Part shown: piece after piece, positions 46,050 to 53,105 of the stretch
Numbering within the stretch: the stretch's first letter is position 1
How the letters are laid out: the number at the start of each line of letters is the position of its first letter
DNA from: Myxococcota bacterium
GTDB taxonomy: Bacteria > Myxococcota_A > UBA9160 > UBA4427
Reading direction: 5' to 3'
Length of the DNA stretch: 64,000 nucleotides
Assembly: GCA_965250285.1 (NCBI GenBank)
Contig: OZ252299.1
Coordinates: 4,160,001 to 4,224,000 of the forward strand
Notes under the pieces: generated by a model
The model's input: only the letters and a program-made list of their open reading frames with translations
Told to the model about the DNA's origin: nothing
Database searches by the model: none
Program-made: the position numbers and the translations under genes

Positions 46050-47384
46050 ATGTCGCACCCGAGCAAAGACAAGGCAGCGCCGAAGATCGGCTTCGCGAGC
46101 CTCGGCTGCCCGAAGGCCCTCGTCGACAGCGAGCGCATCCTGACGCAACTGCGCGCCGAAGGGTACGAGACCGTCGGTGGCTTCGAAGAGGCCGATCTCG
46201 TCGTGGTCAACACGTGCGGGTTCATCACGAGCGCCGTCGAAGAGAGCCTCGAAACCATCGGCGAGGCGATCGCCGAGAACGGCCGCGTCGTCGTGACCGG
46301 CTGCCTCGGCGCCGAACCCGAGAAGATCGAAGCGATCCACCCGAGCGTGCTGTCGATCAGCGGCCCGGCCGACTACGAGTCGGTGATCGGCGCAGTGCAC
46401 GAGCACTTGCCGCCGGCGCACGACCCCTTTCTCGACCTGCTGCCGCCCCAGGGCGTGAAGCTCACGCCGAAGCACTACGCCTACGTGAAGATCAGCGAAG
46501 GCTGCAACCATCGCTGTCGCTTCTGCATCATCCCTTCGATGCGCGGCGATCTCGTGAGCCGCCCGATCGACGACGTGATGCGCGAGGCCGAGCGCCTCGT
46601 CGCGGGCGGCGTGCGTGAGCTGCTCGTGATCTCGCAGGACACGAGCGCGTACGGCGTCGACGTGAAGCACACCGAGCACGAGTGGGGCGGACGCGCGTGG
46701 CGCACCCACGTGGTCGATCTCGCCGAAGCGCTCGGCGAGCTCGGCGTGTGGGTGCGACTGCACTACGTCTACCCGTATCCGCACGTCGATCGATTGATCC
46801 CGCTGATGGCCGAGCAGCGGATCCTGCCCTACCTCGACATTCCGTTTCAGCACGCGAGCCCCGCTGTGCTCGCACGGATGCGCCGCCCGGCGCACGCCGC
46901 GAAGACCCTCGAGCGCATCCACGCATGGCGGGCCGAGGTGCCCGAGCTCTCGATTCGCAGCACGTTCATCGTCGGCTTCCCCGGCGAGACCGACGCCGAC
47001 TTCGAGCTGCTGCTCGAATGGCTCGACGAGGCGCAGCTCGACCGGGTCGGCTGCTTCCCCTACTCACCGGTCGACGGCGCAGCGGCGAACGATCTCGACG
47101 GCGCCGTCCCCGAAGCGCTCAGACAGGAGCGCTGGGAGCGCTTCATGGAGCGCGCTTCGGCGATCAGCGCCGCGCGACTCGGCGCGAAGGTCGGGCAGAC
47201 GATGCAGGTGCTCGTCGATGGCCGCGAGGGCGACGTCGTGGTCGCCCGGACGCCCGGCGACGCGCCCGAGATCGACGGCATCGTCCGGATCCGCGGCGAC
47301 GAAGAGCTGGGTGCCGGTGACTTCGTCGACGTCGAGATCACCGGCAGCGACACCTACGACCTCGACGCACGCATCATCGACTGA
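46050..47384 (+). CDS. rimO: Ribosomal protein S12 methylthiotransferase RimO
   Basis: [18 protein letters not shown], radical-[11 protein letters not shown] and TRAM DAPEIDG motifs. Confidence 0.97.
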
Positions 47385-47401: not shown

Positions 47402-47821
47402 TCAACGCCGGGCGTCTGGCTTGGCCAGGATCACGCTTCGCACGGCCGCCGGGTCGCGCAGCGGCTTCACGCGCGCGGCACCGACTTCTTCACGCGTGAT
47501 CGGGGGCACCACCTCGACGCCGCCATACGTCGCGACGACCCAGTTGAGCAGCCTGGCCAGGCGCGCATCGTCGAGTGGCGCCTGGGCCGCACCCGGGACG
47601 CGCATCAGATAGTCACGGCCGCCCGGTCGCGTCGCGATCTCGCCGACGGCGCCGAGCCCCGGCACCACGCCGCCTACCCCTGCGCCATCGGATCCGTGAC
47701 AGGCCGAGCAATGGAGCACGTAATCCTCGTCGACCGGGGGCGACTCGGCCGCGGCGACCCAGGGCATGAGCCCCACCATCACGCCGAGAAGAGCGCGGGC
47801 GCAGCGCCCGAGCCGCGTCAC
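47402..47821 (-). CDS. Periplasmic monoheme cytochrome c at the end of the amine dehydrogenase operon
   Basis: GTG overlapping the mauA stop, signal peptide, CSACH heme motif and GRDYLMRVPG. Confidence 0.85.
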   Translation of the reverse strand: MTRLGRCARALLGVMVGLMPWVAAAESPPVDEDYVLHCSACHGSDGAGVGGVVPGLGAVGEIATRPGGRDYLMRVPGAAQAPLDDARLARLLNWVVATYGGVEVVPPITREEVGAARVKPLRDPAAVRSVILAKPDARR

Positions 47822-48369
47822 TTCTCGGGCTGCCCTTCGGTCGCGACCCCGAGCACGATCGCCACCGAGCAGTGGTAGGTCTGCACCTCGGCACCCGCGC
47901 ACCAGTTGATGTCGTTGCTGCGGAACCAGTGGTAGTCGGGCCGCTCGCCCTCGTTGCGGTTGCACATGCAGCGACCGCAGAACGACTTGCCGCAGCAGTC
48001 GTTGTACGAGATCAGGTAGTCGCGATCGTCGGCCGGATTGCGGCACGTGCCGACCCACGTCACCGGGCTCGTCTCGGTGCCGGGCGGACACTGACTGGCG
48101 CTGCCACCGCAGCACGCGCACGCGAAGCCGTCGATGCCGCAGTGGCGCCAGTAGTCGCAGCGCGTCTCGTCCCCGGCGTCGCCGTCCGGCTCTGGGGCAT
48201 CGACGCTCGCTGGCGCCGAGCCCCCGGCTCGCGCCACGGGCAACATCGGCATCACCGTGCCGCCGGCCATCACCGCGCCCAGCCGCGCGAGAAAGCTCCG
48301 TCGTCCGAGTCCGCGCGCGAGCCCACGCGACGATCGCTCGACCCACACGTCCAGTCGGCTGCGCTTCAT
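47818..48369 (-). CDS. mauA: TTQ amine dehydrogenase light (beta) chain, AADH/MADH family
   Basis: Tat motif GRRSFL; CDYWRHC.IDG; TTQ-forming Trp in SPVTWVGTC and NDINWC; 14 Cys. Confidence 0.95.
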   Translation of the reverse strand: MKRSRLDVWVERSSRGLARGLGRRSFLARLGAVMAGGTVMPMLPVARAGGSAPASVDAPEPDGDAGDETRCDYWRHCGIDGFACACCGGSASQCPPGTETSPVTWVGTCRNPADDRDYLISYNDCCGKSFCGRCMCNRNEGERPDYHWFRSNDINWCAGAEVQTYHCSVAIVLGVATEGQPEK

Positions 48370-49052
48370 TCGACCTTCTCCTGTCGCCGGGGCATCTCGT
48401 GCAGCGAGATCACCCGGCCGGGCTCGTCTTCGACTCGGCCCGATTCGTCGCTCGACCCCGCGAGGCTGCGCTCGGCCATGTGATCCTGGATCGTGGCGAC
48501 GCCCGTATCGTCGGCGACGAAGAGGCTCTCGAGGTGCTCGCGCGAGTTCACGAGCCCGCGCGAGCGCAGCGTGCCCTGCCCGTCGATCAACACCGCCGTC
48601 GGGAGCTTGGCGACCTGATACGCCAGACCGAGATCGGTCGAGACGAGATAGGGGATGCCCTCGAGACCATGCGACTCGACAAACGCCCGGTGCGACGCGA
48701 GCGTGCCCCCGTCGCTCGCGAGCAGCAGACGCACCTCGTTCGCCTCGTCGCGCACGACCTTGCGAAGCGTCGGCAGCAGCGAGTCACAGACCGGACAGGT
48801 GGGCGAGAGAAAGAAGAGCAGCGTCCGCGGGCCTGCGCCGCCGACCCGCACCGGCTGCCCATCGAGGTCGGTTACCTCGAGCTCGGGCGCGGGCTCACCG
48901 ACCTGCGGCCCCTGCGCGTGCATCAGCGCCCCGACCGGCGCGATGCGCTCGTGGAGCAGACCGATCTGCCGCGCGAGCGCCGCGACGACGCAGCCGAGGA
49001 CGACCACGATCAGCCAGAGCAGCCCATTCGAGACGAGGATCGCTTCGTTCAT
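48366..49052 (-). CDS. mauD: Amine dehydrogenase accessory thioredoxin-like protein MauD
   Basis: LARQIGLLHERIAPVGAL, SPTCPVC and GLVNSREHLESL motifs. Confidence 0.95.
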   Translation of the reverse strand: MNEAILVSNGLLWLIVVVLGCVVAALARQIGLLHERIAPVGALMHAQGPQVGEPAPELEVTDLDGQPVRVGGAGPRTLLFFLSPTCPVCDSLLPTLRKVVRDEANEVRLLLASDGGTLASHRAFVESHGLEGIPYLVSTDLGLAYQVAKLPTAVLIDGQGTLRSRGLVNSREHLESLFVADDTGVATIQDHMAERSLAGSSDESGRVEDEPGRVISLHEMPRRQEKVE

Positions 49053-49627
49053 CGCAAACCGCCCCGCTGTGCCGGCGCGACCGGGGTCGCGGCGAGCGTG
49101 TGAATCGACGTCCAGACGAGGGCGAGGGCCGCCCAGCCGCCGACGAGAGAGAGCGCGTCGAACCAGTGGAGGGCGCGCCCCGACGCCGGGAGCACCGCGA
49201 GGCTCGTCGCGGCGAAGGCCAGCACCGCGTTGCGCACGAGCAGCCAGGGGCCGATCCGCACCGAGCCGCCAGCGGGGCCCAGGCACCCGCAGTCGATGTC
49301 GCGGCGACCGCGGGCGAGATTGATCGAGATGGCCGTCGCGTACAGCGCGAGCAGGCCGACGGCGACGCACGCCGTCACCACGCCTCCCACCGAAGCCGGG
49401 CCGAAGCCCGTGAGGACGAAGCCGACGGCCACGGTGGCCTCGGCCCCCGATACGCCGAGTGCGACGCCCCGCGCCCAGCCCGTCGGCACCACTGCGTAGT
49501 CGGCGATCGTCTGCGCCGCCGCGCCGAGGTCGCTCGCCTTGTGCCACGCGGCCTGGGCGAAGACGCCGGCCAGAGCCAGCCGCAGCAGCCAGCCGATCAT
49601 CGGGTCGAGGTCGATGGGCGGCGTCAC
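49049..49627 (-). CDS. mauE: Methylamine utilisation membrane protein MauE
   Basis: AAWHK, INLARGRRDIDCGC.G and LVRN motifs; GTGA overlap with mauB. Confidence 0.93.
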   Translation of the reverse strand: MTPPIDLDPMIGWLLRLALAGVFAQAAWHKASDLGAAAQTIADYAVVPTGWARGVALGVSGAEATVAVGFVLTGFGPASVGGVVTACVAVGLLALYATAISINLARGRRDIDCGCLGPAGGSVRIGPWLLVRNAVLAFAATSLAVLPASGRALHWFDALSLVGGWAALALVWTSIHTLAATPVAPAQRGGLR

Positions 49628-50982
49628 GGCGTCTCCAATCGAGAGCCGCCGAGGCCCACCTGCGACAGGTCGCGTAGATGCTCGCCGGTCAGGCCGTCGA
49701 GCACCGAGACCGAGCCGCGCTCCGAGTTGCGCACGAACACGCGCGGCGCGTCGTCGCTCGAGACGGTGATCGTATCGGCACCTTCGCGGGGGATCAGCGT
49801 CTGCAGCAGCCAGGGCACGAAGCCATCCGGACCGATCTCGAGCATGTCGATCAGGAACGCCGCGGTGAAGTTCGGCAGCTCGACGCGCGCGACCCGCTCG
49901 CGGCCGACCGTGTCGAAGATCCACATCTCGGGCCCGGGATCCTTATGGGTGCCCGGCCCCCCCTGATGGAAGAGCACGTAGAGACGACCGGTCGGGGCGT
50001 TTGCCGCCAGCAGCTGGCGTCCGCCGGGCCGCCAACCGGCCTTCGCCTCGGCCTCGTCGACGAGCGACCAGCTGTCGACGGTCGGCGCGCGCCCCGGTGC
50101 GCCGGCGAAGTCGACGCCGTGAATCGCACCCGAGAAGGTCGGGAAGTACCAGACGTCGCCGATGCGGCCGGCGGCGAGCATCGCCGGATCGTTCACCGCG
50201 TCGAAGAAGGGCTCGCTCGCGACGTCGGCGACGAGCTGGCCGGCTTCGTCGAATGCATAGACGTGCACGGTGCCATTGCCGCAGAGCATCGCGAAGGCCC
50301 GCGGGCCGACGGGATAGATGCCAGCACAGCCGGCGGTCGGCAGCTGGTTCAGGTAGGCCCGCTGCTCGAGGTCGATGATCGTGACACCGGTGACCGGAAA
50401 CTGGTTGAACACCGCCAGGTAGCGATCGCCGTCGAGCAGCGCGGTGTAGGCCAGCGACGCGGCGCTCTCGCTCGCGCGCGTCGGAAAGACGATGTCGCCC
50501 TTCACCTCGAGGGTCTCGTCGTCGTAGATCGTCACGAAGTCGGTGCGGCGACCGCGGCGACCGCGGTCGTAGACGATCTCGACCGAGTAGAACTCGCGCC
50601 GGTCGGGCGCATAGAGCGGCGGCTTCGGCGAGAGGGTCGTCCCGCTGTCGATGGTGGCGACCATTTCACCGCTGTCGCCGTCGTAGAGCTGGGCGTGCAG
50701 AAGGACGGCGTCGACCACCCACACGAAGTGCGGGCCGACCGGCGGCAGCGTCGCCGAATCGAGCCGACCCACCGACGCGGCGGCGGTGCGCTCGGCGTCG
50801 GAGGCACGAGCGTTCGCAGCGAAGAACAAGAGGGCGAAGAAGAGGGCGAGGCCGACGAGCAGCCACATGAACACCCGAAGCAGACTCGGGCCGTTCGATG
50901 GCGGCCGCTTCGCCAGGCGCCCCGTCGCCCCGGAGCGGAGGTACGGCGGGCACGCGAACTCGGTGCCGGAGGGCTCGATCAC
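49624..50982 (-). CDS. mauB: Amine dehydrogenase heavy (alpha) chain, beta-propeller
   Basis: RG.RTDFVTIYD..TL, P.AGC..IYP, LCGNG, WRPGG.Q and GTHKDPG motifs; GAGGAG RBS before the GTG. Confidence 0.92.
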   Translation of the reverse strand: MIEPSGTEFACPPYLRSGATGRLAKRPPSNGPSLLRVFMWLLVGLALFFALLFFAANARASDAERTAAASVGRLDSATLPPVGPHFVWVVDAVLLHAQLYDGDSGEMVATIDSGTTLSPKPPLYAPDRREFYSVEIVYDRGRRGRRTDFVTIYDDETLEVKGDIVFPTRASESAASLAYTALLDGDRYLAVFNQFPVTGVTIIDLEQRAYLNQLPTAGCAGIYPVGPRAFAMLCGNGTVHVYAFDEAGQLVADVASEPFFDAVNDPAMLAAGRIGDVWYFPTFSGAIHGVDFAGAPGRAPTVDSWSLVDEAEAKAGWRPGGRQLLAANAPTGRLYVLFHQGGPGTHKDPGPEMWIFDTVGRERVARVELPNFTAAFLIDMLEIGPDGFVPWLLQTLIPREGADTITVSSDDAPRVFVRNSERGSVSVLDGLTGEHLRDLSQVGLGGSRLETP

Positions 50983-51175
50983 GGACCGGTCTCCTCACGT
51001 CGGCGCACCGCGGGACGCGCGGCTCTACGGCCGGCGGCCGGGGGGCGCCTCGACCCGAGTCTAGAGCCGCGAGGCGGGCACTGCATCGCGTGCGATCGGC
51101 CCCATGAGACCCCTCGACGAGACCCGGTGCGGCCCGGCTAGACTCGGTCGCAGCTCAGACACGAGGAAGGGGGCC

Positions 51176-51856
51176 ATGGAAGCCACTGCCAACACGACAC
51201 GCCGTCCCAGGCTCAGGCATCGCGCCGCGCGAACGGCGATCGCCTGCGCGTGCGCCGCGGCTACGCTCGGCCTGCTGTGCGCGGGCGTCGCCGTCGCGCA
51301 GGACGACGCCAACCCGCCGCCGCGGGGTCCATCGGGCTACGCCCGCCCGGGCATCTACCTCGCCGTCGCCGGCGGCGCGCTGATCAAGACGTTCGACCTG
51401 CCCGACGGCATCACCGATCAGATCGGCGAGAGCGCGTACATCGGGGGCAAGATCGGCTCGCGTCACAACCGCTGGATCGCCACCGAGACGAGCGTCGACT
51501 ACGGCCTGAAGGCCTTCGAGCTCGACGATTCGAACGACTTTATCCCCGGCGTGCCCGTCGAGATGAATCCCCTCTACGTGTCGGGCAACGTGAAGCTCTA
51601 CGCGCTCGATGGTCGCTGGCAGCCATGGGTGGCCGGCGGGATCGGCGGCGCCTGGGCGTTCTTCGAGGCCCGCGTCGCCGGATCGACGGTCAACGTAACG
51701 CGCGGCTCGTTCCTCGGACGCGTCGGCGGCGGGCTCGACTTCTACATCAACCGAAGCATCGTGATCGGCCCCGAGCTGTACTGGAACGCCACGACCGGCG
51801 ACCTGCAGGATCTGCGCACCCTCTCGATCGGCGCGAACGTCTACTTCCGCTTCTGA
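51176..51856 (+). CDS. Outer-membrane beta-barrel protein (OmpA/porin-like)
   Basis: Signal peptide, amphipathic strands, QPWVAGGIG, GGGLDFY and terminal YFRF. Confidence 0.85.
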   Translation: MEATANTTRRPRLRHRAARTAIACACAAATLGLLCAGVAVAQDDANPPPRGPSGYARPGIYLAVAGGALIKTFDLPDGITDQIGESAYIGGKIGSRHNRWIATETSVDYGLKAFELDDSNDFIPGVPVEMNPLYVSGNVKLYALDGRWQPWVAGGIGGAWAFFEARVAGSTVNVTRGSFLGRVGGGLDFYINRSIVIGPELYWNATTGDLQDLRTLSIGANVYFRF

Positions 51857-51949: not shown

Positions 51950-52714
51950 CTAGCTGCGGCGGCGCCCCGCCACGCCGAGCCCCGCGAGACCCAGGCCCAT
52001 CAGCAGCGCCGTCGTGGGCTCGGGGACGATCTCGATGTTGTCGATCGCGCCCGAGCCGCCCAGCAGGAACTCCGCCTTGACGAACTCGCCGAGGCCGAGC
52101 TCCTTCGAGGCGTACGGAGTGATGCGGTTGGCCGTGTTGTCGCCGATGTCGAGGCCCGCGAGCACGACGTCGAAGTCGATGCGGACCGAGGCGCCCGAGG
52201 CGTCCCAGAGCGTGAGCGCGCCGTTCTCGGCGACCGCGCTGTCGATGTCGATCAGGTCGAAGCCAAAGATCGACGTCGGCGTCGAGAACTCGAGGGTCAG
52301 CGTGCCCGCCGGGCGCCGGCCTTCGTCATCGGGCCGGCTGCAGACGCCGCTCTCACAGCCCGCGTCGTTCTCCTGGAGGATCAGCAGATTGCCGAGCACT
52401 TCGCCGACGAGGTTGCCACCGGCCCAGTCGTCCTCGAGGTCGCTGTCTTCGGTGCCGGTGGCGGTCGAGTCGAACGCCACCGCGTAGTCGAAGTCGCGCT
52501 GGAAGCTCTCGGCGATGATGGTGACACCCGAGACGTTCGTGACGACCTCGCCGTTCGCGAGCCCTTCGAAGTCGATCGTCAGGGCCGAGGCCGGGAGCGC
52601 CCCGAACACGAGAGACAGAAAGAGGATCGCGGGAGCCGCGATCACGGGGTGGAGCCGGTCACCGGCTCGGGGGGGTGTGGTTCGCATCGGTCGCATCCGC
52701 CTGAGAGCATCCAT
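51950..52714 (-). CDS. PEP-CTERM exosortase-target surface protein (start uncertain: 52714, 52696 or 52687)
   Basis: Signal peptide ...PASA, TIDFE and C-terminal VPEPTTALLMGLGLAGLGVAGRRRS. Confidence 0.92.
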   Translation of the reverse strand: MDALRRMRPMRTTPPRAGDRLHPVIAAPAILFLSLVFGALPASALTIDFEGLANGEVVTNVSGVTIIAESFQRDFDYAVAFDSTATGTEDSDLEDDWAGGNLVGEVLGNLLILQENDAGCESGVCSRPDDEGRRPAGTLTLEFSTPTSIFGFDLIDIDSAVAENGALTLWDASGASVRIDFDVVLAGLDIGDNTANRITPYASKELGLGEFVKAEFLLGGSGAIDNIEIVPEPTTALLMGLGLAGLGVAGRRRS

Positions 52715-53105
52715 TGGAGTAGGCCGGCCCCCGAAACCAGGGGGTGGGCACACAGGGAAGTGGCGCGAGCGGGCGGTTTGTGGCTCACAATATGTCGATA
52801 GTCTTCGCGCCCGAGCGGAACCCGGTACGGGCTTGGGACGGGCGGCCAGCGGCAGACGACTTCGCGCGCGACGACGGGTTTGCCACCCACGTGGCGCCCG
52901 ACCGCGGCCGAGCGGAGGTGTCGGCTCGGCGGCACGGGCAGATCTTCCCATCCTCGGGCGTCGCCCCCCGCGGCCCGGTCGCCGGGCGATGGTCGCGAAA
53001 CCCCCAACTCGGTTATTGCTACCGAAATCGAAGCGAATGTGCTCGTCCGGGCTCACGGGGTCGGCTCGCTCGATCGACCAGAGGTGGCCGGGTAGACTGC
53101 CCGCG

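Follow-up and report, generated by a model that had tools for sequence, protein, structure and literature searches.

How is tryptophan tryptophylquinone (TTQ) completed in an amine dehydrogenase whose genes lie without mauG, and what part is played by the small cytochrome c encoded at their end? The question is raised by a 64,000-nucleotide window of a Myxococcota bacterium genome (contig OZ252299.1, positions 4,160,001 to 4,224,000; window coordinates below count from its first letter), which carries a mau-type operon of five intact genes in the order B-E-D-A-cytochrome, all on the minus strand and running from 50982 to 47402. We propose, with a probability of roughly 0.55, that the terminal cytochrome, here called cX, is the haem catalyst that turns both tryptophans of the light chain into TTQ, either instead of MauG or alongside it. 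To our knowledge, MauG-free TTQ formation in enzymes of the aromatic amine dehydrogenase (AADH) type is an open question, and a literature search with most subscription journals outside its coverage returned no paper on it.

The four gene junctions are 4-bp overlaps (GTGA, ATGA, ATGA and GTGA). Coordinates, junctions and family matches all agree with the overlapping chain of five genes that an earlier, sequence-only reading of this DNA had described:

49624..50982, minus strand: heavy (alpha) chain of the AauB/MauB kind, signal peptide predicted; 452 aa; PF06433, E 3e-35
49049..49627, minus strand: MauE membrane protein; 192 aa; PF07291, E 5e-19; CxC motif CGC at 114-116
48366..49052, minus strand: MauD thioredoxin-like accessory protein; 228 aa; TIGR02661, 199.2 bits (cut-off 188.6, exceeded here); CPVC at 86-89
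47818..48369, minus strand: TTQ light (beta) chain; 183 aa; PF02975, E 8e-50
47402..47821, minus strand: cX, monohaem cytochrome c; 139 aa; CSACH at 38-42; PF00034, a marginal match (21.4 bits against a threshold of 21.3)

The haem site of cX

The AlphaFold model of cX (pLDDT 91) aligns with Thermus cytochrome c552 over 104 residues at 38% identity (Z 11.4, rmsd 2.7 Å; Foldseek followed by re-alignment). Relative to c552, an 18-residue hairpin and the axial Met are gone from cX, and V75-P76-G77 occupies the Met-Pro site; the stretch that cX skips is the one bearing the axial Met ligand in c552. This loss is a property of the whole class. In an alignment of 384 related haem domains (356 of the short class represented by cX and 28 of c552), Y71 through L83 span 13 residues in all 356 cX domains and 31-32 residues in all 28 c552 domains. 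Met-Pro is kept in 28/28 c552 domains; Met appears at that column in 0/356 cX domains, which have Val (330), Ala (22), Ile (3) or Leu (1) at the ligand site, followed by Pro in every case. Downstream of CxxCH, helix position 95 is the sole column at which Met, His, Cys or Lys exceeds 20% in cX (Met in 82 of 356). Because the Met loop is lost and no later Met, His, Cys or Lys column is conserved, the haem of cX is predicted to be five-coordinate with an open distal face, although a sixth ligand could still be lent by a partner protein or by solvent. With its single CxxCH and a negative PF03150 domain search, cX is not itself a dihaem of the bacterial cytochrome c peroxidase (bCCP)/MauG family, and an ESM Atlas search returned generic cytochrome c clusters alone.

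A five-coordinate haem is the peroxide-binding site in MauG and bCCPs, as an excerpt of PMC6405878 describes. For the operon studied here, we propose that the light chain is exported by the Tat system and that its seven disulfides would be formed by MauD and MauE; for MauE, disulfide formation in the light chain is the likely role given in part of a preprint (bioRxiv 10.64898/2026.03.05.709764). The haem of cX, predicted to be five-coordinate, would then bind H2O2 or O2 at its open distal face to yield a high-valent species, and cX, docked on the light chain near W156, would pull electrons from the precursor tryptophans. Where a second haem is present it may assist, either as a His/Met c552 that supplies or removes electrons or as a His/Tyr MauG-like dihaem that adds oxidising power. 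The mature enzyme would convert a primary amine to an aldehyde and ammonia and pass its electrons to general His/Met cytochromes, of which the host genome encodes several candidates.

Linkage of cX to mauA

If cX serves this enzyme, the two should be found together. The same 46 of the 301 genomes of the host's phylum carry mauA and cX, though these genomes are kin and not independent trials. Full mauA is present in 12 of 401 Pseudomonadota genomes (a thirteenth match, a 24.5-bit fragment, lies outside this count), and cX is present in 11 genomes, all within those 12; the cX profile for Pseudomonadota was built from these very loci, so that the independent evidence is the 390 negatives alone. 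Across both phyla, cX therefore accompanies full mauA in 57 of 58 sampled genomes. In a species-level genome collection, mauA lies near cX in 78 of the best 80 of 182 cX loci; one of the two exceptions is at a contig edge and the other (L089) has no mau gene in view. The suggestion that the cytochrome is a dedicated partner of the enzyme is thus upheld by both the 46/46 co-occurrence and the linkage. The operon had been thought to sit in a lineage not known for it, but as a surprise this gains no support: the operon is present in 36 of 57 other sampled genomes of the host's class (families f1-f9), and the cX layout predominates in the Pseudomonadota sample too, with 11 of the 12 genomes that have a full mauA.

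The same linkage makes it very improbable that cX is a protective protein that binds gases or peroxide and guards the quinone, or an O2/NO sensor, comparable to the Sphaeroides haem protein and concerned neither with making the cofactor nor with carrying electrons. There are class I cytochromes whose open haem site binds O2, and a dihaem cytochrome is their partner, according to an excerpt of PMC2909971. Such a function would nonetheless leave unexplained both the near-exclusive linkage to mauA and the absence of cX from mauF/J/G clusters, which make the same cofactor.

Plasmids carry both kinds of cluster. Twelve of 29 matches to a MauD query were taken for taxonomic spread (a light-chain tblastn search against plasmids gave none): four are F-B-E-D-A-(amicyanin)-J-G-M-N clusters without cX, and in the remaining eight cX is present and mauG was not found. 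In 7 of these 8 clusters, and likewise in 5 of the 13 cX loci from Pseudomonadota, mauA and cX are separated by a gene for a His/Met c552, which the host operon lacks. Among 145 newly listed representatives, cX is fused to a c552 in 22 proteins and to a c2-type domain in 4. One of the plasmid clusters, from Pseudomonas aeruginosa (L136), has the order B-E-D-A-c552-cX and lies between recombinase and Tn3 transposase genes, a context that suggests the operon is mobile. Other departures from the common layout are seen among L025, L086, L090 and L162; L075 and L164; and L029 and L040, namely B-A-cX without E-D, E-D apart from B-A, and A-cX without upstream B-E-D; in L075, where E-D stands apart from B-A, cX follows D. 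Tandem cX-cX genes occur in L229, L230 and L242. Second copies of the operon without an adjacent cX are found in L170, L171 and L176.

These architectures also bear on the main rival, less likely though serious, in which cX is the dedicated first electron acceptor, replacing amicyanin or azurin, and electrons pass from reduced TTQ to cX and on to a His/Met cytochrome. The sixth ligand of cX might then be water or partner-derived, and TTQ would form autocatalytically or through an unlinked oxidant. The c552 fold of cX suits a carrier, and the fusions to c552 or c2-type domains would form a wire. Yet it is difficult to see why a pure carrier would lose just its Met loop, and many clusters include a further carrier gene that is intact. 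The three operon copies that lack an adjacent cX suit a catalytic helper acting in trans, although a diffusible carrier could act in this way too.

A third architecture joins cX to a MauG-like dihaem. A search started from one cX::dihaem fusion protein added 31 more. Of these 32 fusions, 26 carry the full set of three CxxCH motifs; every one retains H35, W93, Q103, P107, E113, H205 and Y294 of MauG and lacks the surface Trp199 (numbering verified against the P. denitrificans sequence). A quick tree built from 24 dihaems places those of the fusions with Paracoccus MauG (SH-aLRT 96). Eighty metagenome loci comprise 11 fusions, 2 with cX and the dihaem as separate adjacent genes, 3 with tandem cX, and 64 dihaems without a detected mau gene. 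mauA lies directly upstream in 10 of the 11 fusion loci, the eleventh beginning at a contig edge, and in the two loci with separate genes cX and the dihaem follow B-E-D-A. Members of the fusion group (L177-L188 and L213 from metagenomes; P0163 and P0217-P0247) often have His at cX position 80; their clade is marine, and one of the proteins comes from Pseudohongiella nitratireducens. A fusion to a maturase-like dihaem would be awkward for an electron acceptor if the two docking sites coincide, as those of acceptor and maturase on the enzyme are reported to.

Some oxidant is required by operons of the AADH type. We lean towards a role for cX in maturation, as catalyst or relay, because it is a near-invariant, Met-less haem partner of the enzyme, because the intact carrier is optional, and because cX is fused to a MauG-like dihaem. 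The sequence-only reading had left the choice between an electron acceptor and a part of a MauG-independent maturation route; that choice is tilted towards maturation, though not settled, by the missing Met ligand, by a His/Met partner that is optional and by the fusion to a MauG-like dihaem.

MauG relatives and the weighing of roles

Does the host possess a MauG away from the operon? Its assembly is a single 6.25-Mb contig, 95.4% complete, with one copy of mauA. No copper protein of the PF00127 (amicyanin/azurin) type was matched in the host genome, by a search whose control was positive in 3 of 14 genomes. Queries with P. denitrificans amicyanin, MauF, MauJ and MauM gave no tblastn hit in the host genome at E<=1e-4, and MauN gave nothing there beyond one 49-bit match. 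Three bCCP/MauG-family dihaems are encoded in the genome, unlinked to the operon and roughly 160 kb, 255 kb and 1.6 Mb away from it. Their TIGR03791 scores are 147-155 bits, below the cut-off of 443.85; genuine P. denitrificans MauG (96.8 bits) and the dihaem of an Indioceanicola cluster (398 bits) also fall below it. TIGR03791 was accordingly rejected as the sole test for mauG, being too narrow and missing Paracoccus MauG, and direct searches with P. denitrificans MauG were added. The best host match to this query has 35% identity and 104 bits, compared with 72% and 577 bits for a cluster-encoded orthologue pair; for Methylobacterium MauG the corresponding values are 36% and 144 bits against 56% and 366 bits. 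The Paracoccus and Methylobacterium types of MauG are themselves about 34% identical.

At the column of MauG Tyr294 the three host dihaems have Met, a gap and Tyr. None of the three falls in the Paracoccus MauG clade, and two, both with long branches, share an unresolved fork with the Methylobacterium type. From these comparisons, a MauG orthologue among the host dihaems is unlikely rather than excluded. The sequence-only reading had noted the lack of mauG, mauF, amicyanin and azurin in the window. That lack extends to the genome as assembled, in which no MauG orthologue was found; the genome-wide search for mauG and CCP-type dihaems that had been advised did, however, turn up the three unlinked family members. 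More widely, the TIGR03791 cut-off was reached in 0 of 45 and 0 of 50 cX genomes, where the best scores were 355 and 375 bits.

These dihaems raise the possibility of divided labour, with cX performing one part of maturation (the first hydroxylation, or a relay from an unlinked dihaem peroxidase) and a MauG-family protein elsewhere finishing it. The substrate of MauG is already hydroxylated, as part of PMC11951088 reports; cX anti-correlates with mauF/J/M/N rather than with mauG itself; one of the three host genes is His/Tyr-like; and some member of the dihaem family is present in 41 of 50 cX genomes. We nevertheless regard this division as improbable. No dihaem match at E<=1e-20 is found in the other 9 of the 50 (many of these assemblies being incomplete), no single dihaem clade follows the operon, and the His/Tyr-like host gene (C1:3951014-3952477, on the host contig) is about 255 kb away, beside an unrelated ORF of 3,128 codons.

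The host genome contains, in addition, several very long ORFs of 1,100-3,500 codons that carry two CxxCH motifs. Three show a weak match to the dihaem peroxidase family, and one runs divergently from the gene for the His/Tyr-like dihaem:

C1:3941446-3950829, very long ORF with two CxxCH
C1:1744433-1754830, very long ORF with two CxxCH
C1:4082791-4086039, very long ORF with two CxxCH
C1:4228865-4232197, very long ORF with two CxxCH
C1:4449556-4452876, very long ORF with two CxxCH

Several observations weigh against the proposal that cX matures the cofactor. The first is chemical. MauG carries out a six-electron remote oxidation of its hydroxylated precursor with H2O2 and a surface tryptophan (PMC11951088, in part), and its second haem is a His/Tyr haem required if bis-Fe(IV) is to form (an excerpt of PMC6405878). 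That one haem should perform this oxidation of about 1 V and six electrons is a large assumption, because MauG needs its second His/Tyr haem to reach bis-Fe(IV). Nor does cX have an invariant polar distal residue: position 80 is Gln in 166, Asn in 75, Gly in 30, His in 23 and Ser in 16 of 356 domains. Other points come from gene content. L089 and L242 have cX with no mau gene in view, in L242 across 8 kb upstream. A Pseudomonadota locus (L156, G531:C1:289500-305000) has F-B-E-D-A-J together with a c552, a gene resembling an ordinary peroxidase and a multihaem cytochrome, yet no cX and no evident mauG in the vicinity. Together, cX and a MauG-like dihaem occupy 13 loci, so replacement is not strict. 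Methylobacterium MauG lacks Trp199 as well, and so do unlinked members of the Paracoccus clade, a clade that takes in relatives without mau context (L257, for example). Finally, unlinked MauGs may have gone unrecognised: the third host dihaem has Tyr at the Y294 column on a long branch of unresolved position, the 355- and 375-bit TIGR03791 matches could be such proteins, and the Paracoccus MauG query finds a relative of 53-54% identity in 1 of 53 and in 1 of 5 genomes, each far from mauA.

Some of these points would equally suit an electron acceptor, namely the coexistence with MauG-like dihaems, the variable distal residue, and a single haem without the means by which MauG stabilises its oxidant. 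To them can be added that cX lies directly after mauA, at the place of the amicyanin gene in Paracoccus and other methylamine dehydrogenase (MADH) clusters, and that the host lacks a PF00127 protein. Returning to cX as the maturation haem, a broader form of the proposal can be put forward tentatively, at less than even odds. In this form, cX would represent a new class of monohaem c-type enzyme that arose from c552 by deletion of the Met loop; it would mature TTQ by oxidising protein tryptophans remotely and would provide the majority route to TTQ among bacteria, with MauG the minority one, and the trihaem fusions lacking Trp199 would be natural hybrids in which cX acts as a docking and hole-relay module.

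The enzyme and its known relatives

What enzyme does the operon encode? The light chain bears a twin-Arg motif (RRSF at 23), CCGG at 86 and CGRC at 131, and counts 14 Cys in all. It keeps both TTQ tryptophans, W105 (in TWVG) and W156 (in NDINWC), and the acidic residues D80 and D124; these four residues and the 14 Cys align with AADH. Its best match in the PDB is AADH (2agl, 168 bits), compared with 127-129 bits for P. denitrificans-type MADH chains; 3c75 scores 163 bits in an alignment that takes in the leader of 3c75. The heavy chain likewise matches AADH best (2h3x, 129.7 bits, against 112.8 for MADH). Both chains score below the MADH equivalog cut-offs (heavy, 118 against 454 bits; light, 170 against 197 bits), and a true MADH was rejected on these scores together with the separate branch of the light chain described below. 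These comparisons support an AADH-like rather than a MADH-like TTQ amine dehydrogenase, and they bear out the earlier impression, formed from Cys content and motifs, that the light chain resembles AADH more than MADH. The active-site loop that carries alpha-Phe55 in MADH is about 5 residues shorter in heavy chains of the host's clade, and the heavy chain has Leu at the site of Phe in AADH; because this loop is remodelled, an aromatic amine, one of the substrates suggested earlier, is a possibility and no more. A search for conserved flanking genes hinting at the substrate gave none: the recurring ORF clusters were unannotated ORFs opposite those of the operon, or belonged to generic families, P450s and short-chain dehydrogenases among them.

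A light-chain tree was built from 80 sequences (114 columns), a selection of those fetched. The host light chain falls in a 10-row clade (99/87) in which its nearest row is 91% identical and the labels are Myxococcota, Deltaproteobacteria and uncultured Spirochaetaceae. The MADH-type light chains, from the four plasmid clusters and L156, form one branch (100/98), and the host chain lies outside it. A light-chain phylogeny with MADH and AADH references had been advised; this tree, with no AADH reference among its 80 rows, separates the host chain from MADH. One cX-type light chain (L162, G247:C3:1992294-1992623) branches next to the MADH group (100/99), a position that bears on which maturation route is older. 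Composition is flat across the window. The make-up of the host's clade, the operon's presence in 36 of 57 other genomes of the class and the flat composition suggest a resident gene set and not a recent arrival. The Myxococcota-like host supposed in the sequence-only reading would fit the labels of this clade.

GC at third codon positions (GC3) is 0.83-0.92 in the operon genes and 0.90 in the neighbouring rimO. Chance or shadow ORFs were ruled out by the family matches and this GC3 pattern, and a degraded mau cluster by the intact overlaps and an identical layout in dozens of genomes. Two starts are candidates for the heavy chain, GTG at 50982 with GAGGAG upstream, or ATG at 50868, from which a typical signal peptide begins. 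A promoter and terminator scan returned 0 sites. The neighbouring genes are:

46050-47384, plus strand: rimO methylthiotransferase (TIGR01125, 539 bits), convergent with the operon across a 17-bp gap
51104-51856, plus strand: 250-aa gene divergent from the operon; no Pfam or NCBIfam match; outer-membrane beta-barrel-like by eye
51950-52870, minus strand: gene for a PEP-CTERM protein

These data name one small candidate gene for MauG-independent TTQ synthesis and offer three natural architectures in which it occurs: by itself, paired with a c552, or fused to a MauG-like dihaem. Should cX prove catalytic, it would open a new way of making a protein-derived cofactor and show in minimal form how an electron carrier can become an oxidant; should it merely accept electrons, the locus would be an AADH-like operon of the ordinary kind whose cytochrome is odd. 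cX-type operons outnumber classic MADH in the sampled genomes, so many environmental annotations as 'methylamine dehydrogenase' likely mis-state the substrate.

Among known systems, the mauFBEDACJGMN cluster of Paracoccus denitrificans has homologous B, E, D and A genes in the same order and the same TTQ residues, but its mauF, amicyanin, mauJ, mauG and mauM have no counterpart that we could find in the operon's genome. The closer relative is AADH of Alcaligenes faecalis (2agl, 2h3x), the best structure match for both chains, which shares the CCGG/CGRC pattern and the 14 Cys. From it the operon differs in the shortened active-site loop with Leu for Phe, in a genome without an azurin-family gene, and in a light chain that belongs to a separate clade of Myxococcota-labelled genomes. 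The A. faecalis cluster is reportedly laid out as aauBEDA-orf2 without mauF/G/L/M/N, matching the order of B-E-D-A and a monohaem cytochrome here; this operon type is already known. Azurin is said to be the electron acceptor of Alcaligenes AADH, with orf-2 kept nonetheless, and the enzyme has reportedly been made recombinantly from aauBEDA and orf-2. A cX occurs in Achromobacter xylosoxidans, and L146, L150 and L152 each have one beside an AADH-like light chain.

For cX itself, the nearest fold is that of Thermus thermophilus cytochrome c552 (1c52, 1dt1), with which it has the GRxYL and L-x-D helix motifs in common, and which retains the hairpin and axial Met-Pro where cX has Val-Pro-Gly. From MauG, cX differs in having one haem in a class I c552 fold, no His/Tyr second haem and no conserved distal Gln/Glu pair. 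The likeness that we propose between them is an open, five-coordinate c-haem, and in one clade the two are fused in a single protein.

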